Source: an uncultured Gammaproteobacteria bacterium (lineage in GTDB: Bacteria; Pseudomonadota; Gammaproteobacteria; Pseudomonadales; Halieaceae). Taken from it: a stretch of DNA of 64,000 nt. The translations under genes were made by a program, and so were the position numbers. Numbering within the stretch: the first letter of the stretch is position 1; each line of letters opens with the position of its first letter. The stretch covers positions 388,671 to 452,670 of the forward strand of contig CAVQGV010000026.1 in NCBI GenBank assembly GCA_963712135.1, given 5' to 3'. Shown piece after piece: positions 25,594-63,850 of this stretch. Under the pieces are notes generated by a model. That model was given only the letters and a program-made list of their open reading frames with translations. It was not told where the DNA came from and searched no databases.

Positions 25594-26563
25594 GTGCCTG
25601 TGTCGTTGATTCTTGATGCTCTGAACCGCTCCCGACAGGATGCGAATCCTGTGCCTGGTTTGGGCACACATCACCCGGTGGACCCCAACCCGGCAGACTG
25701 GCGTCAGTATCTCGTCTGGGTGGCCCTGGCAGTGGCGCTGGTGGTGATTGCCTGGATGGTGATGGAACGCTTCAGTGCGCCGCCAGTACCCGTCGCAGAT
25801 ATCGGGGCCCCCGTGGCTGAACTGTCGAGTAATTTCGGCAGTGCTGTCACGTCCGTCACAACCGAGCTCAAAGCACGCGCCGCCGCTTCGGCACCGCAAG
25901 CGGCGGTGGCGGCGCAACCCGCAGTAGAAGTTACCCGGTCTCAAGCCGAGCACAACGGCGCCGGTAGCGGCGGCACTCTTCCGCTGCAGATCCCGGAGCC
26001 AGCGGCGGCGACGCCAATCTGAGCCGAGTCCGACGCAGGACTCTGCTGACGCCGCAGCGCAGACGATGAAAACTCCCTCCCTCCGTGCAGCGGAAAATGC
26101 CGCAGTAGCGGAGCTTTACCAGAATCGTGAATTGCAGCAAGACCCTGTAATGCCGGAGCCGGTATCGCGATCGGACTCACGGCCAGCGCAGGCCAGCGAG
26201 CGAGGCGCCACAGCGGAAAGTTCCAGAGTTGCTCCGCTAGAGCAGTCTGTCGATATCGACCAGATTCTGCAGCAGGCGCGGGAGGAAGTTGAAGACGCCA
26301 GCCTGGATGACCATCCCGTGCCGTTCCTGGCCGACTTGTCGCAGCAAACCAAGGATGGCATTCCTACGCTGTATTACCAGCGTCATGATTATTCAAGTGA
26401 CACGAATCTATCCACGATTGTGTTGAATGGCACGCCAGTCAAAGCAGGAGGAAGTCCACTGCCGGGGATGAAGGTTGAAGAAATCCTGCCGGATTCGGTG
26501 GTGTTAAATTATCGCGGCACGCAATTCAGGCTGCGCGCGCTGAATAGTTGGATCAACCTGTAG
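25594..26563 (+). pseudogene. gspB: GspB/ExeB-like general secretion pathway protein B, interrupted around 26022-26066
   Basis: N-terminus MPVSLILDALNRSRQD (GspB hallmark) with TM segment; C-terminal GspB domain (VVLNYRGTQFRLRALNSW) lies in the following ORF. Confidence 0.55.
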
Positions 26564-35188: not shown

Positions 35189-36352
35189 AGGGAAGCTCTG
35201 AAAAACTCCAGTAGTCTGGCATACTTTGAGGAACCTGATCCAGAGATAGAATGCTATGGGCCAGCTGACCTTTGCCGAAGCGGAATATGCCAATAAGAAG
35301 CGTAAAACTCGTCGGGAGAAGTTTCTGGAGAAGATGGATGAGTTAATGCCCTGGGCGCGGCTGGAAAAAAAGATTGCCCGGTATTATGTGAAGCCGGGTA
35401 ACCAGGGAGGAAGACCGCCCTATCCGCTGTCGACCATGCTCAGGGTGCACTGTCTGCAACTGTTCTACAACCTGAGCGATCCCGGCATGGAGGACGCCCT
35501 GTACGAAGTGGAGTCGATGCGCCGGTTTGCACGAATCAGCCTGGACCGCGTGCCGGATGAGACCACCATCCTGAACTTCCGGCACCTGCTGGAGCGTCAT
35601 GAGTTGGGTAAAAAGCTGTTCAAGGAGATCAATGCGCACCTGCATGACAACGGCCTGATGCTGCGCGAGCGCACTATTGTTGACGCCACCATCATTGCCG
35701 CGCCCACCTCGACAAAGAACCCGGAAGGCGAACGAGATCCGGCTATGCACCAGGTGAAGAAGGGCAATGAATGGCACTTTGGCATGAAGATGCATATCGG
35801 AGTGGACGACGCCCTGAGCCTGATCCACAGTGTGGAGACCACGCCAGCCAACGAGCATGACATCACCGTGGCGGACAAATTGCTGCACGGGGAGGAGCGG
35901 CGAGTCTGGGGCGACGCGGGGTATGTTGGCATCGACAAGCGCAGGGAACATGAGGACCGCGAGACGGACTGGTTGATAGCTTTGCGTCCTGGGCATCGTC
36001 GACTGCTGGAGGCGGGCAGTGAGCTTGCTGAGGCGGAGCGGATCAAAGCCAGCGTGCGCGCCAAGGTGGAGCACGCATTCTTCTACATCAAACGGATGTT
36101 TGGTTATAGCAAGGTGCGTTACCGGGGACTGGAGAAAAACACCAATCGGCTGTACGTGTTGTCGGGGCTGTCCAATCTGTTGCGCAGCCAGAAATACCTG
36201 CTGGCGTGGGGTGAGTGCGCCTGAATTCTGCGAAATGGCGGAATTCAGGAGAAGAAACGAACACTACGGACAGATTCGTTGCCGGAATTTAGGCTTTGCC
36301 GGGGCGAACTCGGGTTGAAGCAAGAATCGAGAGGTTAATCAGAGCTTCCCCA
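35189..36352 (+). mobile_element. IS5-family insertion sequence (about 1.16 kb)
   Basis: Imperfect terminal inverted repeats GGGAAGCTCTGA (35190-35201) and TCAGAGCTTCCC(C) (about 36339-36351) flanking a DDE transposase gene. Confidence 0.65.
35256..36224 (+). CDS. IS5-family DDE transposase
   Basis: 322 aa with high similarity to E. coli IS5 InsH across its length (LTFAE.E.SKRR.TRRE.FL..M...PW, YNLSD..MEDALYE..SMRRFAR, HFGMK.HIGVD, DAGY.G, RAKVEH.F..IKR.FG). Confidence 0.85.
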   Translation: MGQLTFAEAEYANKKRKTRREKFLEKMDELMPWARLEKKIARYYVKPGNQGGRPPYPLSTMLRVHCLQLFYNLSDPGMEDALYEVESMRRFARISLDRVPDETTILNFRHLLERHELGKKLFKEINAHLHDNGLMLRERTIVDATIIAAPTSTKNPEGERDPAMHQVKKGNEWHFGMKMHIGVDDALSLIHSVETTPANEHDITVADKLLHGEERRVWGDAGYVGIDKRREHEDRETDWLIALRPGHRRLLEAGSELAEAERIKASVRAKVEHAFFYIKRMFGYSKVRYRGLEKNTNRLYVLSGLSNLLRSQKYLLAWGECA

Positions 36353-38304: not shown

Positions 38305-39280
38305 GTGAACTGGCAACATCACCATGCCACCATCAACGGCATACACATGCACTATGTGGAGCAGGGGGAGGGCATGCCGGTGGTGCTGTGCCACGGCTTT
38401 CCCCACCTGTGGTTTAGCTGGCACCGGCAAATCAGTGCACTGGCTGATGCGGGCTACCGGGTAATTGCCCCGGACATGCGCGGTATGGGACAGACCGAGG
38501 CACCACCTGATCCGTCATCCTACGACATTGATCACATCACTGGCGACCTGCTGGGGTTACTCGATCATATCGGCGTGGAGCGCGCAGTATTTGCCGGCCT
38601 GGATTTCGGCGCCTTTGCTATCTACGACCTTGCCCTGCGCCACCCCGAGCGCGTCATCGCGCTGATTGGCCTGGAGAATCCGGCGGCGCCCCATAATCCT
38701 GCACGAGCCTCCGCTCACCGAGTACCGGCGCATGGGGCAGGCGCATTTTCTGCATATCGAGTACTTTCGCGTGCCGCCGCGGGCCGACGAGGAACTTGCA
38801 GCGCAGCCGCGCCGCTTCCTGCACAAGGTCTTCCATACGCTGAGTGGTGCGGGTAATTATTTCGATGTGTTCAATTACCCGCCGGGTACGGCCTATATCG
38901 ACGCCATGGCCGAACCGCCGCCGCTGCCCTGGCCATGGTTGTCCGAGCTAGAGCTGGAATTTTTTGTCAGCGAGTACAGCCGCAGCGGATTTACCGGTGG
39001 CCTCAATTGGTACCGCTCATTCGACTTGAAGTGGGCGCAGCGCAAGCCCTTCGAAGGCGTGCAAAGCGCGGTGCCCGCGTATTTCCTGGGCAGCGAGCAC
39101 GATGTGGACCTGGAGGGTTTTCACGGCGATGATCCCATCGCCCAGATGCGGGCGATTTTTCCCGGAATTGCGCGAGGTGCGCATGATTCCCGGTGCGGGT
39201 CATATGGTGCAGTTGGAAGCGTCGAGTGAAGTGAATGCAATTCTGCTCGACTACCTGCAGGATATTCGGCAGCGCCTTTA
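38305..39280 (+). pseudogene. alpha/beta-fold hydrolase (epoxide-hydrolase-like) with two frameshifts (about 38690 and about 39185)
   Basis: HGFPHLWFSWHRQ motif and nucleophile elbow region; the remainder continues in two other frames and ends ...IPGAGHMVQLE... Confidence 0.6.
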
Positions 39281-40823: not shown

Positions 40824-41164
40824 GTGTTGTTAGTTCCCGTTGCGGTATATCTTCGAGCCATGTTAAAGGATTCTTTGCTTCGGCGCACATCTGCAAGGGA
40901 TCTTAGACTTCTGCGGATTGTTGCAGTTTGCCGGGTCTGCGCTGGCACCATCCTCTGGGGCACTTGCGACATTGAACAATGCCTGGTGACCGCATAGCGC
41001 TGCCAGATGAAAACGTCGTAGGAGGTCTTGAGATATAGCGCCACAGAAGTTTCAACTTCTTCCGCTTGTGTGCCAGACAGGTAGTGGACGTCATTTGCGC
41101 CAGAGTATAAACTGCCCTCCTGTTTTGAGCGCCGTTGACAGACCTGTACTAAGGAGTCTTTGAG

Positions 41165-41401
41165 TTGAGCAAAGAAGTCGAAGTTATCGAAATGATAAAA
41201 ACCATACTCAAGCATCAGGCCATGCCAGAAGTCGCGGTAGAGTTGTCCTCGGAACTTTACGATGACGGTATTGGACTGGACTCCCTGTGTGTCGCTGAGC
41301 TGTCCGCCATGCTGGAAAAAGCCTACGGGAGGGATCCTTACACCAGCAAAATCATGCCCCGCACGGTTAACGATATTGTAAGTTTCTATGGTGACGACTG
41401 A
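41165..41401 (+). CDS. acyl/peptidyl carrier protein (phosphopantetheine attachment site DSL)
   Basis: 78 aa; GIGLDSLCVAEL matches the carrier-protein Ser motif; AAGGAG-like RBS upstream; start may be TTG at 41165 or ATG at 41192. Confidence 0.7.
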   Translation: MSKEVEVIEMIKTILKHQAMPEVAVELSSELYDDGIGLDSLCVAELSAMLEKAYGRDPYTSKIMPRTVNDIVSFYGDD

Positions 41402-41403
41402 CG

Positions 41404-42762
41404 GTGATTGCGGCCCGATTTAGTGGTGCGCTCGAGCGTTGTCCCGAACGCCCCTTTTTACTGAGTGCTGCCATCGAATACAGCTATTCCGATTTTTTTC
41501 AATACTGCCGCAAGCTGGGTAACGGGTTTTCTAAACTTGAGGGAAGCCGACTGGCTTGCCATATGGCTGATTCACCCGTGTTGGTCGCCGTGATGCTCGC
41601 TGCGGGGATGAGCGGTAAGTCCCTGCTAATGCTGAACCGCGACTTCACAGATCAACAGTTGCCCGACTTGTTGCAGCGCTATAAAGTGGATGTGCTGATC
41701 AGTGATTCAGTGCCAACAGTCGCAATTCCCGCTAGTTTGCAGAGCGCTGATACACTAGATCGACTGTCCACTGGTGCGCCACTGCATAACTACAGTGAAG
41801 GCGAAATACTGATTTTGACATCCGGAACGACGGGGCAGCCCAAATGTGCTCGCTACACATGGGCCGATCTTTTTGCTCAGGTAAGTGAACGGCATGCACC
41901 GGCGGATGAGCGCTGGCTGCTGGCCTACCGCCTCAATCACTTTGCTGGCTTGCAGATGTTGGTTCACGTTCTGCAAAACCGCAGCACCCTGGTTCTGGCA
42001 GAATCGACGCGAGTCGCCCATGCACTTGACACCATGCAAGCATTTGCCGTCACACATGTCAGTTCCACCCCCACTTTTTGGCGATATGCGCTGGCAACTC
42101 TGCCCGCAGCGGGGCATAAGTTGAAACTCAAGCATATTACACTTGGCAGCGAAGCGGTTTCGTCGTCCTTACTGGAACGGCTACACCATACATTCCCCGA
42201 TGCCCGTATTGTCCATATTTATGCATCTACCGAAGCTGGTTCCTGTGTCTCTGTTAGTGATATGCGTGCTGGGCTGCCAATTTCAATATTGCATCGGGAT
42301 GCTAATGCAGATGTGCAGTTCCGCGTGGTACAGGACGAGCTGCATATCCGCAGTGCGCATGGAATGCGCGGCTACGCAGGCCCGGGAGAGATTGCCAGTA
42401 AGGATGAGGATGGTTGGCTCGCTACGGGGGATCTTGTGCGAATCGAGGATGACCGAATACTCTTCATGGGCAGACGATCAGAAACTATCAATGTCGGTGG
42501 TGTCAAGGTACATCCAATGGAGGTAGAGAATGTGATTTCTTCTCTCCCTGGAGTAAAGCTGGCGCGTGCGTTTGGAAAAGACAATCCTGTAGTGGGTCAA
42601 ATTGTAGCCGTGGAAGTGGTAATTAATTCAGGCTGTAACGAACCGGAAGTCGAGGAATCCATCCGCGAAGCCTGTTTGGTGCTGACCCGCCATGCGCGCC
42701 CACGAATCATCACTTTTGTTGATACAATAGAAACCAATAATTTCAAACTAAAAAGGCAATAG
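41404..42762 (+). CDS. ANL-superfamily adenylating enzyme (AMP-binding), short form, candidate carrier-protein ligase
   Basis: 452 aa; AMP-binding core TSGTTGQPK; translationally coupled to the upstream carrier protein (stop/start 41401/41404). Confidence 0.8.
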   Translation: MIAARFSGALERCPERPFLLSAAIEYSYSDFFQYCRKLGNGFSKLEGSRLACHMADSPVLVAVMLAAGMSGKSLLMLNRDFTDQQLPDLLQRYKVDVLISDSVPTVAIPASLQSADTLDRLSTGAPLHNYSEGEILILTSGTTGQPKCARYTWADLFAQVSERHAPADERWLLAYRLNHFAGLQMLVHVLQNRSTLVLAESTRVAHALDTMQAFAVTHVSSTPTFWRYALATLPAAGHKLKLKHITLGSEAVSSSLLERLHHTFPDARIVHIYASTEAGSCVSVSDMRAGLPISILHRDANADVQFRVVQDELHIRSAHGMRGYAGPGEIASKDEDGWLATGDLVRIEDDRILFMGRRSETINVGGVKVHPMEVENVISSLPGVKLARAFGKDNPVVGQIVAVEVVINSGCNEPEVEESIREACLVLTRHARPRIITFVDTIETNNFKLKRQ

Positions 42763-42770
42763 AGCGCACA

Positions 42771-43493
42771 ATGAAAGTAGTGCTTATCAGCGGCGGCAGC
42801 AAGGGTCTTGGTGCAGGCCTGGTGGACAGTTTCCTAGGTCGCGGGTTCAAGGTTGCTACCTTTAGTCGCGCTGCAACTGACACGACCAAACAGTGGCAGC
42901 AGCAATATGGTGACAATTTCTATTTTGAAACCTTGAGCTTAGCCGACAAGGCTGCATGCAAACAGTACGTAGAAAATGTTCAGCGGCAACTGGGCGATAT
43001 CAATATCCTGGTTAACAATGCCGGAGTTGCACATACAGCGTTGTTGGCACTGACCGACGACGAAGCCATTGATCGCCTGATCGACACCAATCTCAAGGGC
43101 ACCTTTTACCTGACCCGTCTGGTCTGCCGCCCAATGCTTTCTTTGGGTTGGGGGCGCATCATCAATATATCGTCTATTGTCGGTCTTTCTGGTTATCGCG
43201 GCCTTTCAGTGTACAGCGCCACCAAAGCTGGCTTGGATGGCTTTACGCGTTCTCTTGCCAGGGAATTGGGCTCTCGTAATATTACTGTCAACTCTGTCGC
43301 GCCAGGTTATCTCACCACGGAAATGACGGAGGAACTGGGTGCCAGGCAGCGTCGTCAGATAGTCGGGCGCACACCGATGGGGCGCATGGGCACAGCCGAG
43401 GATGTTGCCGGCGCAGTTCAATTTTTGGCTGGTGACGACGCTAACTTCATCACAGGCCAGGTACTTGTTGTCGATGGGGGCATTACCTGCTAA
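42771..43493 (+). CDS. SDR-family oxidoreductase (FabG-like 3-oxoacyl reductase)
   Basis: 240 aa; N-terminal GGSKGLG Rossmann motif, NNAG, catalytic S...YSATK. Confidence 0.85.
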   Translation: MKVVLISGGSKGLGAGLVDSFLGRGFKVATFSRAATDTTKQWQQQYGDNFYFETLSLADKAACKQYVENVQRQLGDINILVNNAGVAHTALLALTDDEAIDRLIDTNLKGTFYLTRLVCRPMLSLGWGRIINISSIVGLSGYRGLSVYSATKAGLDGFTRSLARELGSRNITVNSVAPGYLTTEMTEELGARQRRQIVGRTPMGRMGTAEDVAGAVQFLAGDDANFITGQVLVVDGGITC

Positions 43494-44350
43494 TGGCCGA
43501 TTTGCCCGTATCTCCCATTTCCCCCGGCAGCGAACCGGTGCACCACTACGATACCGTGGTGGGCGCCTGGGGCGATCTGCTTGAGGAAGACCTGCATTAC
43601 GGCTATTTTCACAGTGGCAATGAATCACTCATTGAAGCCACCAATGAACTCACCAACCAGATGCTGAACCTGGCTGAGCTTCGATCTGGTCTTCATGTGC
43701 TAGATGTGGGCTGCGGTACTGGTAAAGCCGGCTGCCGCTTGGCGGGGGAGTACGCTGCGAGGGTAACCGGCATTTCGCCCAGCAGCGCCTGCGTAGAAAG
43801 AGCCCAGGCGTTGGCGAGGGAAACGAGGCAGCAGGATCTCGCTATTTTTTGTCACGGCGATGGCACATCTCTGTCCTTCGATGACAATACCTTTGATTGC
43901 GTTTGGGTGATGGAATCCTCACACCTGATGCAGGACAAGAAGGCGCTTATCTCAGAGTGCACGCGGGTACTTCGTCCCGGCGGACGTGTTGTACTTTGCG
44001 ACATCATGGTCAAACGCAAACTTACTTTGGAAGAAGTTATCGAGTACCGGGACGAATTTCTGCTTCTTAGAGACGTCTTCGGTCGAGCGATCATGGAGCC
44101 ATTGCAATTCTATCGGCAGCAGTTCGAGTCCAAAGGGTTAAATGTTGCTGCCGCGTCAGATATTTCTGCGCCCACATACCACACTTTTGCGCGGTGGCGC
44201 CAGAATGCCTATGAAAACCGGGAGAGCGTTTGCAGAATGATTGGCGAGCGTGCCTGGGAGCAATTCATATTATCCTGTGATGTGTTGGAGCAGTTTTGGC
44301 AGAGTAATATCCTTGGCTATGGAATTATCTGCGCGCACAAATACGCGTAG
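43493..44350 (+). CDS. class I SAM-dependent methyltransferase (CFA-synthase / mycolate-MT-like)
   Basis: 285 aa; VLDVGCGTG motif I; N-terminal YDTVVGAWGDLLEEDLHYGYF resembles the CMAS family; start overlaps the SDR stop. Confidence 0.7.
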   Translation: MADLPVSPISPGSEPVHHYDTVVGAWGDLLEEDLHYGYFHSGNESLIEATNELTNQMLNLAELRSGLHVLDVGCGTGKAGCRLAGEYAARVTGISPSSACVERAQALARETRQQDLAIFCHGDGTSLSFDDNTFDCVWVMESSHLMQDKKALISECTRVLRPGGRVVLCDIMVKRKLTLEEVIEYRDEFLLLRDVFGRAIMEPLQFYRQQFESKGLNVAAASDISAPTYHTFARWRQNAYENRESVCRMIGERAWEQFILSCDVLEQFWQSNILGYGIICAHKYA

Positions 44351-44354
44351 CGAC

Positions 44355-45893
44355 TCAAAACTGGAAGTACAGAAATTCGCTGACTTCCGTCAGGTTTACA
44401 ATAGATGCAACGGCCAGAACAGCAATACCAACAGACCAGCCCCGACTGGCCTGCCACTGCAGACTGATCACTGGTTCCCGACCCGCCAGCGGTTTGTCAA
44501 TGGCAACCTCGCAGTGGCGAAAAAGCTGGTAAGTGCTGGGCAGTATCCAGCAAGCTGCCAAAGCCATTGCAAGAAGCAGGAAAACCACACTGACTGCGTA
44601 GCTTTCCCCGAATAACATGGAAGTGAGTTGAAGGTTTTTATTACCCTTCAGTGCGGCCATGTACTCAGGCACAAACTGCAGCCCATCCCAGTTAAGGATC
44701 GCGTTATACACATGGCCAGCTGAGGCCAGATTATCTGCGCGAAAAACCACCAGGGTTAACGCCACCACCAAAAACGTAAGCAGCTGTGCCGCTGCCTTAT
44801 AATCTCTTCTGCCCACCAGTCCCAGCGGCCCGGAAACCTTGATCCGCCAGAGTTGATGGATCACCACGTAACTACCATGACAAAGTCCGTATACGACAAA
44901 GGTCCATCCGGCGCCGTGCCAGACCCCACCGATGAACATCGTGGCGAACAGGTTAAATCTTTGCCTTGCAGGACTACAGAAAAATCCGCCCAGGGGAGTG
45001 TAGACATAGTCCCTGAGGAAACGAGAAAGAGTGGCGTGCCACATACGCCAGAAATCGCTGATATTCAATGCTCGATAAGGCGAAAAGAAATTTACTGGAA
45101 GTTTGATTCCGAACATGCAGGACAGTCCAATAGCCATATCGCAGTAACCGGAGAAATCAAAATAGAGCTGGAAAGCGTAACTGAATGCTCCGGCAAGCGC
45201 ATCGAGTGTAGAAAGATTGCTGCCCTGCGACGCCAGAGAAAAAACTGGCGTTGCGAACTTGGAAAAGCCATCGGCAATAACAACTTTCTTAAACAGGCCA
45301 ACAACCATGATAGATAGCCCAATACTTAGATTAGTATAGGTTCTTGAACGGTCGGTGAGCGTTCTGAACTGTGACAACATCTCTCGGTGATGCACGATTG
45401 GACCAGCAATCAGCTGCGGGAAAAAAGCAACAAATAGGCAGTATTCAAGGAATCCGTGGTCTTCGGTAAGCCCTTTGCGGGAATCCACCAGATAGGCAAT
45501 CTTCTGGAAAGTGAAAAAAGAAATCCCAAGGGGCAAGATGATCTTCTCGAACTCGAAGCTCCAATCCATTGCCACCCGGAAATTATCAATAAAGAAATTA
45601 GCGTATTTAAAATAGCCCAGCAGGCCGAGATTGAACAGCACTCCGAGCACCAGCCAATGACGACCCTGATTTTTCCCGCCCTTGGCAAGCAAGGTGCCCA
45701 GAAAATAATTCACGCAAGCGGAGAAGATCAGCAGCAGCAGGTAGACTGGGTTCCACCAGCCATAAAAAAACATTGAGGAACTAACCAGCCAGATCAAGAT
45801 CAGGCGAAGATTGCCGACTTTTTGCAGAAACAGGAATCCCGCCAACACCACGGGTAGGAAGAAAAAAAGAAACTCACTGGAATTAAATAGCAT
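44355..45893 (-). CDS. MBOAT-family membrane-bound O-acyltransferase (AlgI/DltB-like)
   Basis: 512 aa; conserved FWRRWH-like motif (FWRMWHATLSRFLRDYVYTPLGG) and GGVWHGAGW; catalytic His region. Confidence 0.85.
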   Translation of the reverse strand: MLFNSSEFLFFFLPVVLAGFLFLQKVGNLRLILIWLVSSSMFFYGWWNPVYLLLLIFSACVNYFLGTLLAKGGKNQGRHWLVLGVLFNLGLLGYFKYANFFIDNFRVAMDWSFEFEKIILPLGISFFTFQKIAYLVDSRKGLTEDHGFLEYCLFVAFFPQLIAGPIVHHREMLSQFRTLTDRSRTYTNLSIGLSIMVVGLFKKVVIADGFSKFATPVFSLASQGSNLSTLDALAGAFSYAFQLYFDFSGYCDMAIGLSCMFGIKLPVNFFSPYRALNISDFWRMWHATLSRFLRDYVYTPLGGFFCSPARQRFNLFATMFIGGVWHGAGWTFVVYGLCHGSYVVIHQLWRIKVSGPLGLVGRRDYKAAAQLLTFLVVALTLVVFRADNLASAGHVYNAILNWDGLQFVPEYMAALKGNKNLQLTSMLFGESYAVSVVFLLLAMALAACWILPSTYQLFRHCEVAIDKPLAGREPVISLQWQASRGWSVGIAVLAVASIVNLTEVSEFLYFQF

Positions 45894-46247
45894 AGATTGG
45901 CCGTGTTCATCTCGGCTGCTAATTCGTTGACGTCCTTGGCCCGAAAGTATATCTTCTTTTACGATAAGTCAGTAGGGATAATGCGAGTCAGAATCGGTAG
46001 CTAGCTATCGGTTTGCAGCATATTAGCTATCTGCGGATTGATATGCTGGTTTCCACACAATCAATACCCAGCAATACATGCGGTATCAACATCGAGTTAT
46101 CGAAGACGGTTATCCTGGCTCTACCGGATTGCGTGGTATACAGTGGCAATCCCGCTGGCTTACTGCCGGTGTAGCGGGGCTATTGCTGAGTATCAGACTG
46201 CCCAACCTAATCGCCGTCAATGAATTTATATACTTTCAGTTCTATTT

Positions 46248-47450
46248 ATGAAGCAATATCTTTTCGGCACTTTAGTACTCATATTTGGCTTCTGCTTGTT
46301 GGTAGCCCTGTTCAATTACCGTGTCGACCCCTACGCAATTTATCACTACAAACAGGTGAATGCAGACTGGCTGAGTCGGATTGATCAGTTCCTCCATTTA
46401 CGGATAACAAAACCTTGGCACGTTGTGCAAATAAAACCTACGGCGATCATTGTGGGGACATCAAGATCTGCATCGGTGAACCCAATGCATTCCACCTGGC
46501 CCCAAAACGCTAGCTACAATCTGTCAATTCCCGGCCTGACGTCGTATGAAATGCTACGATTTATCGAGCATGCCCAGGCTAATGGACCTGTCAGCAAGCT
46601 GATGATTGGGTTAGATTTTGAGGCTTTCATTCATCCGGAGCCACGTTTCCAGTTTGGTTTTGAGGAGTCGCGGATGGCCCGTGATCCCGATGATCTGGCT
46701 TCGGCACATTTTATCTGGCAGCTCATGAGCGATATGAGAAACACATTGTTATCGATGTCGGGTATTAGCCAGAGTGTAATGGCGCTCACCGGCAGTGCGG
46801 AAGTGGGTCGTCGCTATTTTTCGGACGGGACTTGGGAAAGTACCCAATCAAGATTCACGGGTAGACCAGGTTATATCTATATTGGTAAGGAAACTGTATT
46901 TGATCAGCGAAATGAGAAGCTGAGCCTTGATAGAAATCTGGACAATTTCGCTGACATATTGCGCTTTTCCCATCGACAGAAAATAGAAACACGCCTGTTC
47001 ATCACACCCCAACATGTATTCATGATTGATCTTTGGTGGCGTCTGGGTTACAGAGAATTGTGGAAAGAGTTCCACCGCCGTCTGGTAGAGGTAAATGATG
47101 CGGTAGCTATTGAGATGGGAGTTGAGCCTTTTCCTATATTTGGATTTAATCATCTACGGGGGGTTGTCGATGAGCCTATTAGCAGTGCTCAGAATTCCAC
47201 TCGTTCCTTGTTCAGCGATGGCTTGCACTTTCGACCACGACTCGGGAAGCAAATCATGGATGCAGTGTGGACTGATGGTGCTGAGTTGGGAGCTAAACTG
47301 GATGTCAATTCAGTTAATTCCTATCTGTCTCAGGTAGAACAGTTGCATCATACATTCGAGTCTGCCAATACAGAACTCACTGCAGCGTCTACGTCGGGGG
47401 ATTTCCCCCGAATTGGAATAGCTGGCGGCGGTATTTGTGGCCGAAGCTAA
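46248..47450 (+). CDS. N-terminally membrane-anchored extracytoplasmic protein, candidate DltD/AlgJ-like O-acyl transfer partner of the MBOAT
   Basis: 400 aa; single N-terminal TM; IVGTSRSA segment in the position of the DltD GSSE-type nucleophile motif; divergently paired with the MBOAT gene; function is inferred from context. Confidence 0.35.
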   Translation: MKQYLFGTLVLIFGFCLLVALFNYRVDPYAIYHYKQVNADWLSRIDQFLHLRITKPWHVVQIKPTAIIVGTSRSASVNPMHSTWPQNASYNLSIPGLTSYEMLRFIEHAQANGPVSKLMIGLDFEAFIHPEPRFQFGFEESRMARDPDDLASAHFIWQLMSDMRNTLLSMSGISQSVMALTGSAEVGRRYFSDGTWESTQSRFTGRPGYIYIGKETVFDQRNEKLSLDRNLDNFADILRFSHRQKIETRLFITPQHVFMIDLWWRLGYRELWKEFHRRLVEVNDAVAIEMGVEPFPIFGFNHLRGVVDEPISSAQNSTRSLFSDGLHFRPRLGKQIMDAVWTDGAELGAKLDVNSVNSYLSQVEQLHHTFESANTELTAASTSGDFPRIGIAGGGICGRS

Positions 47451-48465: not shown

Positions 48466-49844
48466 CTAGATGAGTTTTTTGGGATCTAGCAACGAGGCCA
48501 GTTTTTGCGGTGACAGATCCGTCATTTGTGCAGCTACTTCAATGATCGGGCGGCTTTCCTGGTAGGCGCGTTTGGCGATTTCAGCTGCCGTACTATAACC
48601 GATCTCACGATTCAGGGCGGTCACCAGGATGGGATTTCTCGCCAGGTTGGCCTCAATGTTTGCGCGATTGACCACAAAGTCAGCGATGCACTTATCCGCC
48701 AATGCTGTGCAACTGTTGGCGAGCAGGGTAATGCTCTGCAACAGGTTGTAGGCGATTACCGGCAGCATTACATTGAGTTGGAAATTGCCTGACTGGCCGG
48801 CCACGGTGATGGCAGAGTCGTTGCCAATCACCTGCGCCGCCGCCATTGCTACCGCTTCGGGAATGACCGGATTGACCTTGCCCGGCATGATACTGCTGCC
48901 CGGTTGCAGGGGTTTGAGGCTGATTTCACCCAACCCGGCCAACGGCCCGCTGTTCATCCAGCGCAGGTCATTGGCGATCTTCAGCAGTGCCACTGCCAGC
49001 GTCTTGAGCTGCCCGGAGAGCGCTACGGCAATGTCCTGGCTGGCGAGGGCGGCAAAGAAATTATCTGCCGGTTTGAACGTGGCTGCGCAACTCTCGTTGA
49101 GATAGAAACAGAAACGCGCGGCGAACTGCGGGTCCGCATTGACGCCCGTGCCGACGGCCGTGCCGCCCTGCGCCAACTGGCGCAGCTGTGCGCGACAGGC
49201 ATCGATGCGCTGTGCGGCCTGCACCAACTGTGCGCGCCAGCCAGAGAGCTCCTGCGCCAGGCTCAGCGGCATCGCATCCATCAGGTGCGTTCGCCCCGTC
49301 TTGATACAGTCGGCCAGGCCTGCTTCGCGTGCGGCGATGACTTCCGCCAGGCGGTGCAGGGCAGGCATGAGTGAATTGGCCAGCGCCAGCTCGGCACTGA
49401 CGTGAATTGCGGTGGGAATCACATCGTTGCTGCTCTGGCTGCAGTTCACATGGTCGTTGGGATGCACGGCCTGTCCCGACTGGCGGGAGGCGAGGGTGGC
49501 GATCACCTCGTTGGCATTCATATTGGTGCTGGTGCCCGAACCGGTCTGGAACACATCGACGGGAAACTGCTCCAGATGCTGTCCGTCGGCGATGGACAGT
49601 GCGGCAGCGGCGATGCTCGCCGCCAGTGCGGGGTCCAGCAGACCCAGCTCGGCATTGGCGCGCGCAGCAGCGGCTTTGATCAGGCCGAGAGTGGCAATAA
49701 AACCTGCTGGCATGGGCATGCCGCTGATCTGGAAATTCTCCACGGCGCGCTGTGTTTGCGCGCTATAAAGCGCTGTTGCGGGCACCTGCACCTCGCCCAG
49801 GCTGTCCTGTTCTATCCGCATATCACTCATCGCGATGGTCCTCG

Positions 49845-49848
<4 letters not shown>
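48466..49848 (-). CDS. fumC: class II fumarate hydratase
   Basis: 460 aa; GSSIMPGKVNP signature. Confidence 0.9.
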
Positions 49849-52527
<2,679 letters not shown>

Positions 52528-52559: not shown

Positions 52560-54825
52560 CAGTATAGAGGATAAACATGCTCCCCGCTGTCACTGTAATC
52601 CGGACGCGCCGACATGGCAGCGGGTACAGTACATACACCCCCGCCAATACCAGAGCCGCCCGGAGAGTTGGCCCCGGGATAGGGGATGTCCTAAACGGTC
52701 GCAAGCATTTCCCGTTGCCGTCGGTCCAGGGCACTCGTGCCAGATTCACGGGCCAACCAATTACCCCGTGATGTTTAGGGGAGCAGCAGACCGCTGTTGG
52801 GTACGACAAAGAGTCGGAGTCTAAACGGATACGTTTGAGTGTCAACAAGGGAACCAGGGAAGCTCGGCTGAGTAGGGTAGTCGCACAGCTAGGCCGGTCT
52901 TCGGACCGACCGAAGCACCTACCGATGAGGCAGCCGAGTGGCGGAGCACCCGTAGTAGTCGGAGACGTGAAAGACGTTCACATGGCGAAGGGGTGCAGGA
53001 TGATTCGTGTTTGGATGACTGAAGTGTTCTTTAATTTGGAGGCTTCCAAATGAACATCGAAGAAGTCCAGCGTAGGCTCTGGGAGCAATCGCAGGCCCAC
53101 AAGCAACACAGGGAGTCAGGAACACCGCTCTTTCCGACCAACCCGTACGGTGGCCGGATTCGGAACCTGATGGACCTGATGCACAATCCCACGTGGATTG
53201 CGGCAGCTTGTGACCGCGTGCTGAAACGCTCCCGTGGCAAAGCAGCAGGCGTAGACGGGGTGACGGCTCGCGAGTTCGCAAGAACCGTGAGTCCCGCCTC
53301 GAACAACTACGCCTGGAGTTGAAACGCGGTACGTATCGGCCTCTGCCGCTACGACGGGTGGAAATTCCCAAGGCTAACGGCAAAATGCGCCAGCTTGGAA
53401 TCCCCTGTCTGCGGGACAAGATCGTCCAAGAGGCAATACGTATGGCGTTGGAACCCATCTTCGAGGTCGAGTTCCATGACAACTCCTACGGGTTTCGGCC
53501 CAACCGGAGCACACACCACGCGGTGGCCCGTTGCCGCCATATGGCATTGACGGGCTTCACCTGGATCATCGAGGGCGATGTCAAGGCTTGCTTTGACGAA
53601 ATCTCGCACAAGGCGATCCTGCGGTGCGTCAGGGAAAAGGTGATGGACAACAAGTTTCTCGCTCTGATCCACCTCCTGTTGAAGGCGGGCGTGGAAATCG
53701 ACGGCGTCGTTCATCCGACCGACCAAAGGGGTTCCTCAGGGTGGCGTGGTCTCACCGCTCCTGGCCAACGTCGTGCTGAACAAATTGGATTGGTTTCTCC
53801 ATTCCAAGGGGTTCCACGGCAACGGCCAGCGAGAGGCGGTGCATCGCCACGGCCTGCCAAATGTCCGGTTCTGCCCGCTACGCCGACGATTGGTGCGTGT
53901 TTCTCACGCGCTGCAATCGGCAGCATGCGGAACGGCTACGGGACGAGATCCGCGACTTCCTTCGGGAAACCTGCGGGCTCGAACTGTCGGCCGAAAAGAC
54001 CCGGATTACCCACGTGAGAGACGGGTACGACTTTCTCGGATTCAACATCTCTGTAGGTGTTGGCAAATCCGGGAAGTTGGTGCCCAAAGTCAGGGTAGGC
54101 CGCAAGGCAATCACCAACATCCAGACTCGCTTGGGCGAGGCCCTTCGCTATCGCCCAATGCAGGAAAGCATCTCGGTCCGTCTTGTTCGTGCTTCGGCAG
54201 TCATTCGTGGCTGGTCGAACTACTTCAAGATTGCCCACAACTTCTCGCAAGTTGCTCACGGGCTGGACCACAAGGCTTTCTGGATCGCGGTGAAAGCGAT
54301 ATGTCGGAAGGAAGACATATCGACTGCCCAAGTGTCTCCGCAGGTACCGTCTTCGGAACACCATTGGGGTTCACGAAGACTGTACCCTGGCCCGCTTCCA
54401 AGATACGGCGTCGACGTACTACTGTCCGTCACCGGAACCGTATCAACCCGGCTGCAACCAGCCGTACCTGGAAGACGACGAATGGGAGGCGGCTTTCGTC
54501 TTCCACGAACGTCAACGGCCTGGTTGCGGAGACCTCAAGTGGAAGGCTTTGGTTCGCGACGGCTTTCATTGCCGTGGCTGCGCGGTCGTGGTCACATCCA
54601 AGACCTCGCACGCGGACCATATCGAACCTGTCAACCGCTTTGCCAACCTCGCAATGGCGAACGACTTGGACAACATCCAGACGCTTGTGTCTGCGATGTC
54701 ACAAGCTCAAAACTGCGAGGGAACAATGAGAATAGAATCATCTGGAAAGCCGGATGCTTGGAAACTTGCACGTCCGGTTTGGGGTTGGGGCCGGGGTGAA
54801 ACTCCCCGGCCTACACCACATGCCC
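52560..54825 (+). mobile_element. group II intron (domains I-IV with RT/maturase/HNH ORF); 3' end (domains V/VI) not confidently found and apparently cut at the GC break
   Basis: About 490 nt structured leader with hairpins before the IEP ORF; IEP has RT motifs (YRPLPLRRVEIPKANGKMRQLGIPCLRDKIVQ; YADDWCVF), maturase X and C-terminal HNH (HADHIEP...); only a weak GNRA-capped hairpin GGCCGGGG-TGAAAC-TCCCCGGCC at about 54806-54827. Confidence 0.6.
53050..54799 (+). pseudogene. group II intron-encoded reverse transcriptase/maturase/HNH endonuclease, in at least 4 frames
   Basis: RT domains 0-4 (53050-53760), RT5-7 with YADD (53861-...), X and HNH (to about 54730) are each in different frames. Confidence 0.7.
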
Positions 54826-60905: not shown

Positions 60906-61009
60906 CGACCATCGGTCAGAACCCATGTACGGAACACACGTCGCCAACCGCCTCGTTGGAGGACAGGGCGACGTGCGCCGCTGGCCCGGCCGTATCATTG
61001 CTTCCAAAG

Positions 61010-61081
61010 AGACGCCGGTGGGAGTCGAACCCACTTGAAGCTGCTTTGCAGGCAGCCGCCGTGCCGTCTGGCTCCAGCGCC
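61010..61081 (-). tRNA. tRNA-Cys (GCA)
   Basis: Acceptor GGCGCTG/CGGCGTC, anticodon loop CTGCAAA, T-arm GTGGG-TTCGACT-CCCAC. Confidence 0.7.
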
Positions 61082-61091
61082 ACGTTGTCAG

Positions 61092-61164
61092 TGTCCTCGC
61101 CAGGAATCGAACCTGGTCTTCGACCTTCGCAGGGTCGCGTGCGAATCCGGCACACTCCGAGGAC
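61092..61164 (-). tRNA. tRNA-Arg with anticodon GCG as read (G34 unusual)
   Basis: Acceptor GTCCTCG/CGAGGAC; anticodon stem CGACC/GGTCG, loop CTGCGAA. Confidence 0.5.
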
Positions 61165-61179
61165 GTATTCTCGTTCAGC

Positions 61180-61251
61180 GCCCCGCCGAGGAATCGAACC
61201 TCGTCTTGCAGTTTCGAAGACTGCCGTGCTGATCCGGCACACTCGCAGGGC
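61180..61251 (-). tRNA. tRNA-Arg (TCG)
   Basis: Acceptor GCCCTGC/GCGGGGC; loop CTTCGAA; T-arm CGAGG-TTCGATT-CCTCG. Confidence 0.65.
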
Positions 61252-61259
61252 ATGTCAAG

Positions 61260-61331
61260 TGTCTCGACCAGGAATCGAACCTGGATCTGGACCTTCGGAG
61301 GGTCCTATGCGATCCGTTACACCATCGAGAC
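61260..61331 (-). tRNA. tRNA-Arg (CCG)
   Basis: Acceptor GTCTCGA/TCGAGAC; anticodon stem GGACC/GGTCC, loop CTCCGAA. Confidence 0.65.
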
Positions 61332-61337
61332 ATTCAG

Positions 61338-61409
61338 CATCCCGACCTGGAGTCGAACCAGGACCAGGACCTTAGGAGAGCCCCGTGCGATCCGCTACAC
61401 CATCGGGAC
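61338..61409 (-). tRNA. tRNA-Arg (CCT), tentative
   Basis: Acceptor GTCCCGA/TCGGGAT; anticodon stem with G.U pairs, loop CTCCTAA. Confidence 0.5.
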
Positions 61410-61420
61410 ATACACACCAG

Positions 61421-61493
61421 AGCCGACGACTGGATTTGCACCAGCATCGATGCGGTTTACAAAACCGCCGCCTCTCTGTTCGGCCACGTCGGC
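61421..61493 (-). tRNA. tRNA-Thr (TGT)
   Basis: Acceptor GCCGACG/CGTCGGC; anticodon stem GCGGT/ACCGC, loop TTTGTAA; T-loop TGCAAAT. Confidence 0.6.
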
Positions 61494-61500
61494 AATCAAG

Positions 61501-61571
61501 CAGGAGCGCGAGGAGTCGAACCCCGTCCGGCGGCTTTGGAGACCGCCTGCTCTCCCAGGAGCACACTCCTG
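61501..61571 (-). tRNA. tRNA-Trp (CCA), tentative
   Basis: Acceptor AGGAGTG/CGCTCCT; loop CTCCAAA; followed by hairpin GGCCCCCGG..CCGGGGGCC (61571-61608), which is probably the terminator of the adjacent HNH gene. Confidence 0.4.
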
Positions 61572-61615
61572 TATCGGCCCCCGGCCTTGCGGACCGGGGG
61601 CTCTTGGCGTAACGA

Positions 61616-62214
61616 CTACTCTCGCAGCGTCACGTTCCAGTACGCTTCGCTGACGAACTTCGACCAGCTTTCGATCCGCACGTCGTGGTCCGCGTACAGC
61701 GGCTTCCACGTCGGCCGGACCGGCTGCTTGCGCAGCCGCATCCGCGCCTGCTCCGGCGTGCGGTCGGCCTTCCGCTTGTTGCAGGCCATGCACGCCAGCA
61801 CGCAGTTCTCCCAGCTCGACACGCCACCCTGCGACACGCGGCACGACGTGGTCGATCGTCAGTTCCTCGCTGCCCGGCTGCGCACCGCAGTACTGGCAGG
61901 TGTAGTGGTCACGCTTGAAGATGTTCCGCCGGCTGAAGGTCACTGGGCCACCGGCAGCCGGTCGTAGCCGCGTCAGCGCGACCACCTCCGGCACCCGCAG
62001 CCGGAACCGCACCGCCTGGATGAACGGCTCGCCGTCGCGCGGCCGCAGCTTCGACCAGTCCTCCCAGGTGTAGAGCTGGTAGTCGGCCGGGTCCACGACG
62101 CGGGCCGACTCGTTCCACAACAGCACCAGCGCCCGCGCCACGGTGGCCACGTTCACCGGCTGCCAGTTGCGGTTCAGGACCAGCGTCGGCCGCTGGAGTA
62201 TTCTCGGGGTCATG
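61616..62214 (-). pseudogene. HNH homing-type endonuclease, one frameshift
   Basis: HYTCQYCG...IDHVVP (first frame, start ATG 62212-62214) and ...[20 protein letters not shown] (second frame) form the HNH motif; embedded in the tRNA array. Confidence 0.6.
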
Positions 62215-62234
62215 GTCACGTCCTTTCCATCAAG

Positions 62235-62309
62235 GGTGTCCGGGCGGAGTCGAACCCCCACCTTCTGGTTCACAGCCAGCCGTGCAGAAACCGCTACACC
62301 ACAGACACC
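62235..62309 (-). tRNA. tRNA-His (GTG) with encoded G-1
   Basis: G-1 pairs with C73; acceptor GTGTCTG/CGGACAC; loop CTGTGAA; one T-stem mismatch. Confidence 0.6.
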
Positions 62310-62350
62310 ATATGCGGGCCGCCGTCCTACCGGGCGACGGCCCGCTCGAA

Positions 62351-63166
62351 TCAGTCGAGAAACGCCAGATGCCGCATGGAGGCCGCCTGGCTCTCGGTGT
62401 TCGGCACGACCCGGTGCCACCCGTTGAGCTTGACCGTCTTGTGGTCCGGGTGGCGAATCTTGCCGCGAACGTACACTCCGGCGTCCCGCCGCATCACGCG
62501 CCACGGCAGCCGCTTCTTGGCCGGGTTCTCGGCGATCAGTCGCCGATACGCCGACTCGCTGATTCCCTGCGGGTACTCGAAGCAAACGTAGACGTTCACT
62601 CCGCCGCTCCGGTACAGGAACTCAGCCCAATGCGGCTTGCCGCGTCCGCGTGCCAGCGGTTCATTGCTCAGCACCAGCTTCGGGTCCACAACCAGGTCCG
62701 GCTCGGGGATGAAGAACCATTCCCCCTGCCGGATGAAAGCCTTGTTGTGGCGCCGGTTGCGGTGCCGCGCCTTCAGTCCCTTGCGGGCCTGGGCCGCCAG
62801 CACCTCCGAGGGCTTGAGGGCCTCCATGGCGGTGCGGACGGTGGCCACGCCCGACGTCTCCGGCACGGCCGCAGCGAACCAGTCCCGCTCGTCGTGGCCG
62901 CAGAGGAACTTGTGCTTCTCCTCGCGGTGGCCGTCAGGCTCGCGGACGAGCAGCAACAGGTGCCGCTGGCCGGGCTGGATGTCCAGGACCTCCAGTTCCC
63001 GCTCCGCGTCTTCGCCGAGGGTGACATCGAAGAACGGGCCATGCCCGTCCCGGCCGATGTCCACGGCGAAGCCGGTGAAGCGGGAGCGCCGAATCGTCGA
63101 CCGCACGTTCACCTTGAGCCGTGCGCCCATGCGGGCGAACTGCTTCTCCAGTAACGTGGTATCCAT
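62351..63166 (-). CDS. hypothetical protein (phage-like context)
   Basis: 272 aa from MDTTLLEKQ; no recognised domain; in-frame upstream extension not used. Confidence 0.3.
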   Translation of the reverse strand: MDTTLLEKQFARMGARLKVNVRSTIRRSRFTGFAVDIGRDGHGPFFDVTLGEDAERELEVLDIQPGQRHLLLLVREPDGHREEKHKFLCGHDERDWFAAAVPETSGVATVRTAMEALKPSEVLAAQARKGLKARHRNRRHNKAFIRQGEWFFIPEPDLVVDPKLVLSNEPLARGRGKPHWAEFLYRSGGVNVYVCFEYPQGISESAYRRLIAENPAKKRLPWRVMRRDAGVYVRGKIRHPDHKTVKLNGWHRVVPNTESQAASMRHLAFLD

Positions 63167-63323
63167 AACCTTTCCTTTGTGTTGAGGATCATGGCGGCGC
63201 ACGACGCCGCCATGAACGATTGTCAGTCTCGAACAACAGACGCAGGTCGGATTGTTCTGGGCATCAGCATCGCAACACTCCTTTCGCCATAGGGACACGT
63301 CGTCCCACGCAAAGGTTCTCCAG

Positions 63324-63395
63324 CACCCCGACCAGGAGTCGAACCTGGAACACCTCGTTAGAAGCGAGGCATGATTTCCGTTTCACCATCGGGGC
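63324..63395 (-). tRNA. tRNA-Arg (TCT)
   Basis: Acceptor GCCCCGA/TCGGGGT; anticodon stem CCTCG/CGAGG, loop CTTCTAA. Confidence 0.6.
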
Positions 63396-63415
63396 ACATA
63401 ATCCGGCACACCAAG

Positions 63416-63502
63416 CGGAAGGCAAGGGAGTCGAACCCTCATCTCCACGGGGGAGAACCGCGTTAGCAGAGCGGCCCGGCCAACCGTATCCGGCTACCTT
63501 CC
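63416..63502 (-). tRNA. tRNA-Ser (GCT), type II long variable arm
   Basis: Acceptor GGAAGGT/GCCTTCC; loop CTGCTAA; 87 nt with extra arm. Confidence 0.55.
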
Positions 63503-63528
63503 GTAATCATCGATCCATTTCGATCCAG

Positions 63529-63599
63529 TGGACCGCCGGGGAATCGAACCCCGATTTCCTGGGTGCAAACCAGGCGTCTTCCCGTTGGACCAGCGGCCC
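63529..63599 (-). tRNA. tRNA-Ala (TGC)
   Basis: Acceptor GGGCCGC/GCGGTCC; anticodon stem CCTGG/CCAGG, loop TTTGCAC. Confidence 0.65.
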
Positions 63600-63611
63600 G
63601 TATCATCCGAG

Positions 63612-63682
63612 AGGTCCGTCCGGGAATTGAACCCGGTCTTCCTCCTTACCACGGAGGTGTGCTGCCAAAACACCTACAGACC
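63612..63682 (-). tRNA. tRNA-Thr (GGT)
   Basis: Acceptor GGTCTGT/ACGGACC; anticodon stem CCTCC/GGAGG, loop GTGGTAA. Confidence 0.6.
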
Positions 63683-63691
63683 ATTCGCAAG

Positions 63692-63764: not shown

Positions 63765-63772
63765 GTTCACAG

Positions 63773-63846: not shown

Positions 63847-63850
63847 AGTG

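Follow-up and report, generated by a model that had tools for sequence, protein, structure and literature searches.

A carrier-protein gene cassette linked to an MBOAT–SGNH acylation pair in a marine Halieaceae bacterium

The MBOAT–SGNH acylation systems of bacteria, with the exception of Dlt, operate without a carrier protein and use acyl-CoA as the donor (PMC12148441), and the only MBOATs named in a further account are AlgI, PatA, WssH and DltB (PMC9558356). Our literature search, which had partial coverage, found no description of a carrier-protein MBOAT outside Dlt, nor of a module made up of an acyl carrier protein (ACP), a ligase and a short-chain dehydrogenase/reductase (SDR) in glycan clusters. 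Here we describe a locus from an uncultured member of the Halieaceae, contained in a 64,000-nucleotide stretch of DNA (the window), in which genes for a stand-alone carrier protein, a short ANL adenylating enzyme, a FabG-like SDR and an S-adenosylmethionine (SAM)-dependent methyltransferase lie against a gene for an MBOAT. We refer to these five genes as the cassette; beside them is a divergent gene for a 400-amino-acid membrane-anchored protein, the partner. The cassette probably builds a small tailored acyl group on the carrier protein, from which the MBOAT transfers it towards a cell-surface polymer. That the carrier protein feeds the MBOAT, making this a variant of MBOAT–SGNH acylation with a carrier protein, is the explanation we favour with moderate confidence.

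The locus shares with Dlt (DltA, DltC, DltB, DltX and DltD) a layout in which an adenylating enzyme would load a stand-alone carrier, an MBOAT would take the group across the membrane and an anchored SGNH protein of predicted DltD fold would deliver it, and it also shares the acyl-tyrosine shuttle motif FxYxxF. It differs in that the ligase is MenE- and acyl-CoA-synthetase-like, the curated models do not identify the carrier as a DltC, the shuttle motif is part of the MBOAT itself whereas in Dlt it is on the microprotein DltX, the partner has no sequence similarity to DltD, and an SDR and a methyltransferase are proposed to modify the cargo. Dlt is a Gram-positive system, whereas the present host, a marine gammaproteobacterium, is Gram-negative and has no teichoic acids.

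The PatA/PatB, AlgI/AlgJ/AlgX and WssH/WssI systems are alike in having an MBOAT of about 500 amino acids with conserved histidines and additional C-terminal helices that end in FxYxxF, together with an SGNH partner as a distinct protein. They lack a carrier protein, a ligase and tailoring enzymes and are acetyl-CoA users (PMC12148441). Here, in contrast, a dedicated MBOAT clade is inherited together with the ACP, ligase, SDR and methyltransferase genes.

Carrier-protein acyl-donor modules are found in glycan loci, such as RfbK-O of Vibrio cholerae O1 (tetronate), NodF/NodE with NodB/NodA (Nod-factor acylation) and the ACP/FabH/AMP-ligase/methyltransferase genes of the Campylobacter jejuni flagellin glycosylation locus. 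Like the cassette, they combine a ligase and a stand-alone ACP with redox or methylation steps to make an unusual short acyl group for a sugar, and relatives of the module that have no MBOAT (L041, L079, L017 and L050, described below) fit this pattern. In those modules a soluble cytoplasmic acyltransferase uses the acyl group, whereas the only outlet here is the MBOAT/SGNH pair, which implies acylation outside the cytoplasm. The methoxymalonyl-ACP pathway (FkbG-K) is also comparable: there, too, a substrate bound to a separate ACP undergoes oxidation or reduction followed by O-methylation and is then handed on, as proposed here. It differs in having the loader FkbH and acyl-CoA-dehydrogenase-like oxidases, and in passing its product to a polyketide synthase and not to an envelope polymer.

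Gene content of the locus

An earlier note made from the letters of this DNA had read six open reading frames (ORFs) at this locus. All six are present where it placed them, and Pfam and NCBIfam hits agree with its domain calls of a carrier protein (DSL site), an ANL enzyme (TSGTTGQPK), a FabG-like SDR, a CMAS-like methyltransferase and an MBOAT. It had also counted five consecutive, coupled plus-strand genes; the spacing is tight, with 2 nt between the ACP and ligase genes, 8 nt between the ligase and SDR genes and an SDR/methyltransferase overlap of TAATG, but there are only four such genes, and gppA, directly upstream of the carrier-protein gene, is on the minus strand. The MBOAT gene does converge on them, as its stop codon and that of the methyltransferase gene are 4 nt apart.

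The stand-alone carrier protein (41165..41401, + strand; 78 amino acids, TTG start) matches PF00550 at 23.7 bits against a cut-off of 20.8, and its predicted phosphopantetheine-attachment residue is Ser40, within GLDSL. No DltC-specific or AcpP model passes, and its five NCBIfam matches are all to generic ACP models and below their cut-offs. It is 91, 83 and 67% identical to the ACPs of L007, L008 and L009, respectively (L numbers denote loci of the census described below). A Shine-Dalgarno-like AAGGAG, read from the sequence, lies at 41151..41156 (+), 8 nt 5' of the TTG start, and the upstream region 41080-41164 is conserved in L007. Promoter and terminator scans were near background (8 promoter-like sites against 7.2 expected, 13 terminator-like sites against 6.4), and no site was given a role.

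The presumed carrier-protein loader is the short ANL adenylating enzyme (41404..42762, +; 452 amino acids, GTG start; PF00501 and PF13193). It carries the core motifs of the ANL superfamily, the A3 motif TSGTTGxPK (TSGTTGQPK at residues 139-147) and a C-terminal catalytic lysine (Lys448, invariant in the family alignment), as well as a family-specific N178-H-F-A-G-L-Q. Its best NCBIfam match, to MenE (TIGR01923), scores 146 bits where the cut-off is 330; fatty-acid CoA ligases come next, and no curated cut-off is reached. Among its 32 PDB matches at E<=1e-10, MenE and 4-chlorobenzoate-CoA ligase are best, FadD and 4CL also occur, and DltA chains are absent.

The protein encoded at 42771..43493 (+; 240 amino acids; PF13561 190.7 bits, PF00106 184.4 bits) has the motifs GGSKGLG at 8, NNAG at 82, Ser134 and YSATK at 148, and falls below the FabG equivalog cut-offs (TIGR01830, 244.1 bits against 297.75; NF004197, 237 against 332). 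It appears to be a FabG-like SDR and not the housekeeping FabG. The class I SAM-dependent methyltransferase (43493..44350, +; 285 amino acids) matches PF08241 (79 bits), PF13649 (76 bits) and PF02353 (CMAS, 63.6 bits) and has motif I, VLDVGCGTG, at residue 69. Its closest solved structures are RebM (3bus, E 3e-32), AtmM, MitM and the glucose O-methyltransferase 6uv6. Neither the window at this locus nor the canonical Halieaceae cassette has glycosyltransferases, sugar-nucleotide genes or other acyltransferases among the genes called. Comparison of the window with L007 shows purifying selection on the five cassette genes and the partner gene, the ratios of nonsynonymous to synonymous divergence (dN/dS) being 0.05-0.14.

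The cassette MBOAT (44355..45893, - strand; 512 amino acids; PF03062 112.6 bits) has DltB as its sole NCBIfam match, at 178.1 bits against the TIGR04091 equivalog cut-off of 375, and its only PDB sequence matches are DltB structures 8jem and 6bug (E 2e-34), over residues 118-352. His286 and His326 align with the conserved histidines of DltB. About 160 residues extend beyond the DltB-aligned region without a DltB counterpart, and the protein ends in SEFLYFQF* with the candidate shuttle tyrosine at 509; an F[LI]YF[QKR]F terminus is present in all of the approximately 25 complete MBOATs of related loci. FxYxxF is an acyl-shuttle motif whose tyrosine bears the acyl group; it is located on the microprotein DltX in Dlt and on two extra, fused C-terminal helices in PatA, AlgI and other MBOATs (PMC12148441). 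The protein thus has both the conserved histidine and the fused FxYxxF of PatAB/AlgIJ-type MBOATs. Because of the fused C-terminal motif its architecture appears to be of the PatA/AlgI type and not that of DltB, though it is clustered with a carrier protein. No separate DltX-like microprotein was found at the locus, where the sole small ORF with such an ending (46078-46251) lies in a decaying gene remnant described below.

The partner (46248..47450, +; ORF of 400 amino acids) gave no match in Pfam, NCBIfam or PDB sequence searches, even when a 21-sequence profile was run against PDB. The HMM (hidden Markov model) searches proposed in the earlier note were positive for PF00550, PF00501, PF00106, PF02353/PF13649 and PF03062, and negative for DltD or any other Pfam family in this protein. 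Structure prediction, proposed there as a check for an SGNH-like fold, was more informative. An AlphaFold model on the 21-member alignment (pLDDT 78, pTM 0.80) has an N-terminal helix at residues 2-26, and a Foldseek search of PDB with this model returned DltD as its top four matches (6pfx, 7dxm, 6o93 and 3bma), with E values down to 6.5e-4 and probabilities of 0.90-1.0. The protein is thus predicted to have a DltD-like SGNH fold.

A profile search of 1.84 billion representative sequences placed the partner in a family of at least 3,670 clusters (50% identity, E<=1e-3), and none of ten diverse family members matched Pfam. Only P28, G70, S72, P254 and H327 are invariant across 45 diverse members. 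G70-x-S72 is at the place of SGNH block I and D324-x-x-H327 at that of block V, and the block order is the same as in DltD and the classical SGNH enzymes. On this alignment, Ser72, His327 and Asp324 are the candidate catalytic set. An adjacent SGNH-fold protein with a candidate Ser/His(/Asp) set, the feature expected of a PatAB/AlgIJ-type pair, is thus present.

Recurrence of the gene set and of the module without an MBOAT

Related loci were collected in a census of 102 loci, based on ORF calling and HMMs built for the purpose rather than on a full genome survey. Ligase homologues are numerous, and the cassette genes are found together, in three or more arrangements, in Halieaceae, Oceanicoccus and other marine genomes. 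The gene-neighbourhood search proposed in the earlier note thus found the six-gene set co-localised in many genomes. The canonical arrangement, ACP, ligase, SDR and methyltransferase genes in a row with a converging MBOAT gene and a divergent partner gene, is present in L008 (Halioglobus japonicus), in four metagenome-assembled genomes (MAGs) of Haliea or Halioglobus (L011, L012, L014 and L015) and in a TARA locus (L024). These canonical cassettes occupy genomic sites unrelated to that of the window, and their partner, though of the same family, falls in another clade.

In Oceanicoccus (L009) the order is MBOAT, partner, ACP, ligase, SDR, methyltransferase, beside GT2 and ABC2-type exporter genes. 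Close variants of the canonical order, from metagenomes, have the partner upstream of the ACP (L032), or a methyltransferase-adjacent MBOAT of another clade (L030 and L031). L020 has one cassette amid three MBOAT/partner pairs, one partner of which resembles members of the window-partner alignment, and L021 has an extra sulfotransferase and a second MBOAT/partner pair. In L022 a PapA_C acyltransferase lies between the SDR and the MBOAT in an O-antigen-like cluster, and in L084, L085 and L087 the order is MBOAT, SGNH-like protein, ACP, ligase, SDR and GT87. Envelope-glycan genes found as neighbours elsewhere include GT2, Wzm/Wzt-like ABC2, sulfotransferase, GT87 and Wzy. BLAST clustering of neighbouring ORFs in 100 loci revealed no single recurrent additional gene, and Pfam searches of chosen neighbours told more.

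By the purpose-built HMMs, an ACP gene adjoins the ligase gene in 54 of 67 informative loci and an SDR gene in 50 of 58, both being undercounts in high-GC loci. Of the 29 loci whose flanks are long enough, 15 have an MBOAT gene no more than 9 kb away. In a neighbour-joining tree without support values, the cassette-linked MBOATs group in a single clade with 12 members, 11 of which are encoded within 2.9 kb of the ligase. The clade is separate from that of the resident MBOATs of cassette-less relatives (to which the cassette MBOAT is 42-45% identical) and from the extra MBOATs of L020, L021 and L031.

The idea that the module is exclusive to an MBOAT setting did not survive the census, in which about half of the informative loci pair it with cytoplasmic sugar-acylation genes. 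L041 encodes a hexapeptide acyltransferase, two FdtA isomerases, a DegT aminotransferase and a flippase, which make up a 3-acylamino-3,6-dideoxyhexose pathway. L079, with a cytidylyltransferase, a PseG-like protein, GNAT, PIG-L and NeuB, is a nonulosonic acid pathway. In L017, L050, L091, L092 and L097 (soil, peat and Phycisphaerales) the core lies beside a CE4 polysaccharide deacetylase and an unannotated protein of 340-400 amino acids, an arrangement that resembles, by analogy, the de-N-acetylation and re-acylation of NodB/NodA. KAS III adjoins the module in L033, L030 and L031. We take the module to provide glycans generally with an unusual short acyl group, for which the MBOAT/SGNH pair would be one exit among several.

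Insertion into a resident MBOAT–SGNH operon

Three relatives without the cassette (L001, L004 and L006) show what the locus looks like in its absence. Their gene order is P-II, AmtB, alpha/beta hydrolase, gppA (-), MBOAT (+), partner (+), glycine-zipper protein, fumC (-) and acnA (-), with no ACP, ligase, SDR or methyltransferase genes of the cassette, and the window locus has the same flanks. The resident MBOAT and partner genes are translationally coupled in all three, and this two-gene operon looks exactly like a PatAB/AlgIJ-type pair. In L004 (18642-20748) and L006 (18440-21173), about 8 kb downstream of the resident pair, a 515-amino-acid AMP-binding enzyme is encoded beside an alanine racemase, and L006 has a D-amino-acid-aminotransferase-like gene in the same region. 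This hints at D-alanine activation near the MBOAT–SGNH pair in cassette-less relatives; no counterpart of the 515-amino-acid enzyme was found in the window.

Nucleotide homology (blastn) of the window to L004 ends at 40898 and restarts at 46038, which delimits an inserted segment of about 5.1 kb (40899..46037), and homology to the cassettes at other genomic sites (L008, L011 and L012) covers about 41098-45955. The last ~94 codons of the resident MBOAT gene persist as a pseudogene remnant at 45957..46242 (+), found by tblastn with the L004 MBOAT, of which residues 421-455 and 455-514 are matched in two frames with 37% and 58% identity. The remnant has a frameshift near 46061, retains the FIYFQF end and lies directly 5' of the partner gene; in L007 the same region is interrupted by stop codons. 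The cassette replaced ~100 bp of upstream DNA including the promoter region and ~447 first codons of the resident MBOAT gene, that is, its 5' four-fifths.

The remnant contains a small ORF (46078-46251, +) of 57 ATG-started codons which encodes one hydrophobic helix, ends in FIYFQF plus YL, and has a stop codon that overlaps the ATG of the partner gene. As a functional DltX-like microprotein it was rejected on account of the stop codons in its L007 equivalent, and it is probably DltX-like on paper through gene truncation, and decaying.

The partner, which the earlier note had grouped with the other five genes, is on these comparisons the partner of the destroyed resident MBOAT and was not delivered with the cassette. 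The cassette MBOAT gene is now head-to-head with the resident partner gene and not with its usual partner; the partner of canonical cassettes (clade B) is of the same family and 25-30% identical to that of the window. All 51 matches in a search for partner homologues are marine Halieaceae-like, and the partner is 56-62% identical to its orthologues, compared with 86% for GppA. A Haliea MAG (L007=L010) has this hybrid as well, with cassette genes 86-94% identical and an intact partner of 390 amino acids. Between the window and L007, synonymous divergence (dS) of the partner gene is 1.78 (46248-47381 against 9904-11037) versus 0.55-0.95 for gppA, the five cassette genes, fumC and amtB, and its dN/dS is 0.14. 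Because the partner dS is about three times that of its neighbours, it suggests that the partner allele was exchanged by recombination at this single gene.

Horizontal acquisition of the cassette is indicated by the synteny break and the pseudogene remnant. The earlier note had called low GC consistent with it, and the lower GC is real: 51.2% for 40899-46037 and 47.1% for the partner gene, against 58.5-60.5% for the flanks. As proof of transfer, low GC was rejected, because the resident MBOAT and partner genes of relatives are equally GC-poor (50.2% and 54.0% versus 60.6% in L004, which has no cassette). An imperfect 21-nt direct repeat lies at the two blastn breakpoints (left copy ATCTTAGACTTCTGCGGATTG at 40900..40920, +; right copy 46020-46040), with 17 of 21 positions identical and an exact 11-mer, TCTGCGGATTG. 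The 11-mer is absent from all 102 fetched loci, L007 included, and the repeat could be a microhomology scar or due to chance. No transposase or integrase was found among the ORFs called inside 40899-46037, and the repeat is the sole sign of a mobile element at its ends.

Several conserved genes of the window that are 64-96% identical to relatives at the protein level are frameshifted. These are the aconitase gene acnA (49830-52527, -; at least three shifts), an alpha/beta hydrolase gene (38305-39278, +; two) and a T2SSB-like gene (25600-26560, +). The partner gene, too, is shifted near its 3' end (~47385). Other features lie further from the cassette. An intact 322-amino-acid ORF at 35256-36224 (+), just upstream of P-II/amtB, is IS5-family-transposase-like as judged by reading its translation, and ~8 kb (roughly 28.1-36.5 kb) part the alkaline phosphatase gene from P-II, which are adjacent in L001 and L004. 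A group II intron domain (Rfam RF00029, 52.3 bits) is located at 54745-54819 (+), preceded by overlapping ORFs in different frames (53319-54799, +) that may represent a frameshifted intron-encoded protein. GC is 64-67% in a block from ~56 kb, against a window average of 57.6%, and within this block 61009-63917 (-) is densely packed with 15 tRNA genes, five different tRNA-Arg isoacceptors among them; the array may belong to a foreign element. A cobalamin riboswitch (RF00174, 56.8 bits) is present at 11703-11865 (-).

Proposed pathway and competing explanations

The following pathway is inferred at every catalytic step; what was observed are the domain identities, the predicted fold of the partner with its conserved serine and histidine, the fused FxYxxF motif, the conservation of the gene set and the insertion history. 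The ANL ligase would adenylate a small carboxylic acid other than an amino acid (probably a keto or hydroxy acid) and form a thioester on the phosphopantetheine of Ser40. The FabG-like SDR would then reduce a keto group, or oxidise a hydroxyl, of the tethered cargo, and the RebM/MitM-like methyltransferase would methylate it, most simply by O-methylation of the new hydroxyl, to give a short hydroxy- or methoxy-acyl carrier-protein thioester. The MBOAT would take the acyl group at its cytoplasmic funnel, via His326, onto Tyr509 of its own FLYFQF on the periplasmic side. From there the SGNH protein would accept it on Ser72, aided by His327 and Asp324, and esterify an envelope glycopolymer.

Amino-acid adenylation domains have FDxS at ANL core motif A4, where the ligase, compared by eye with this motif, reads N-H-F-A-G. 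An alpha-amino acid cargo such as D-Ala is unlikely on this sequence evidence, because the ligase is nearest to MenE and acyl-CoA synthetases, not DltA, and because of the N-H-F-A-G motif. The FabG-like SDR suggests a ketoreduction on the carrier protein, and the nearest solved relatives of the methyltransferase, RebM, AtmM and MitM, are O- and N-methyltransferases. In the simplest reading, which we infer from these relationships, the cargo would start as a short keto acid and, after reduction, be O-methylated, for example to a methoxy-acyl group. The linkage of the MBOAT to the ACP and ligase genes argues for a carrier-protein donor, and the MBOAT/SGNH pair is the only acyltransferase in the canonical cassette able to unload the carrier protein.

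A number of points weigh against this proposal. The link from carrier protein to MBOAT is drawn from gene linkage, and all fused-motif MBOATs studied to date are acyl-CoA users (PMC12148441). The ACP-ligase-SDR(-methyltransferase) core lacks an MBOAT in about half of the informative loci, where it lies amid cytoplasmic glycan-tailoring genes, and its proximity to an MBOAT could reflect no more than a shared glycan target. At the sequence level the partner does not resemble DltD. In this genome the usual cassette partner is absent from the locus, and a frameshift near 47385 replaces the last ~12 residues of the resident one, whose native end is ...LRRGISPELE. The frameshifts in the window are either assembly indel errors or recent pseudogenisation, and base-level details are unreliable.

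The strongest competitor holds that the locus encodes two separate activities on one glycan. The ACP, ligase, SDR and methyltransferase would serve cytoplasmic acylation, such as amino-sugar N-acylation by an acyltransferase encoded elsewhere, and the MBOAT/SGNH pair would O-acetylate the same polymer from acetyl-CoA, like PatA/PatB and AlgI/AlgJ. Reading the module as a general acyl supplier supports the proposed chemistry, yet it also feeds this explanation: the core is found without an MBOAT in sugar N-acylation contexts (L041, L079, L017, L050 and others), a PapA_C-type acyltransferase sits between the SDR and the MBOAT in L022, and the MBOAT architecture is that of the acyl-CoA-using class. 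The canonical Halieaceae cassette and the window, however, contain no other acyltransferase, glycosyltransferase or sugar-nucleotide gene. A specific MBOAT clade is co-inherited with the cassette through rearrangements and at unrelated sites, and the five genes moved into the window locus as one unit. We regard two separate activities as unlikely, though they are the main rival. Less probable still is a dead or crippled hybrid in this genome, in which the partner was juxtaposed by a recombination accident and has no joint function with the cassette. The resident MBOAT is reduced to a stump, the cognate clade-B partner is gone and its stand-in is only 25-30% identical to it, the C-terminus of the stand-in is frameshifted, and at synonymous sites its gene has diverged from L007 about three times as far as the neighbouring genes. 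But the Haliea MAG keeps the same arrangement with an intact 390-amino-acid partner, dN/dS is 0.05-0.14 in all six genes, and in L020 a partner resembling the window clade, with its own MBOAT, directly adjoins a cassette. The frameshift itself may be an assembly error, as acnA and other conserved window genes are also affected.

A true Dlt (D-alanylation) orthologue in a Gram-negative bacterium would explain why the only NCBIfam and PDB sequence matches of the MBOAT are to DltB, why the best structural match of the partner is DltD, and why a carrier protein and an adenylating enzyme are present. It was rejected because the ligase, the carrier protein, the DltB score and the lack of DltX all speak against it, and we consider it extremely improbable: at 178 bits the MBOAT falls short of the DltB cut-off of 375, the carrier protein fits no DltC model, and the ligase is nearest to MenE and acyl-CoA ligases, with no DltA chain among its 32 PDB hits at E<=1e-10 and N-H-F-A-G where amino-acid adenylation domains have FDxS. 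There is no DltX, FxYxxF being fused to the MBOAT, and the SDR and methyltransferase genes are integral to the operon. The Dlt-like logic with a tailored cargo that the earlier note had proposed is supported by the SGNH fold, the co-localisation and the dedicated MBOAT clade, while the MBOAT proved not to be DltB-like in architecture and the ligase not DltA-like. The same note had held that a ligase grouping with MenE or acyl-CoA synthetases together with a partner of no suitable fold, or else genes never co-localised elsewhere, would point to a chance juxtaposition. The ligase is indeed nearest to those enzymes, far below their cut-offs, but the predicted fold and the co-localisation hold.

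The explanation preferred here, a carrier protein that feeds the MBOAT, has a further implication to which we give about even weight for and against: a second, independent carrier-protein-dependent MBOAT–SGNH pathway, with MenE-like loading, tailoring on the carrier, direct hand-off from ACP to MBOAT and a DltD-fold acceptor that has no Pfam family. If true, it would break the rule that only Dlt uses a carrier protein, and extracytoplasmic polymer acylation could deliver custom-built acyl groups. It would predict a previously unseen ester, neither acetyl nor aminoacyl but for example methoxy-acyl, on an envelope glycan of Gram-negative marine bacteria, and would give a function to a large unannotated family of DltD-fold proteins. 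These predictions are directly testable, as Halioglobus japonicus is a cultivable carrier of the cassette and assay formats are established for Dlt and PatAB. The locus documents the evolution of such systems through cassette insertion and partner exchange, and, if the proposal is true, the window shows module swapping, in which a donor-plus-MBOAT cassette was captured by a foreign SGNH partner and its acyl group redirected to a new acceptor.

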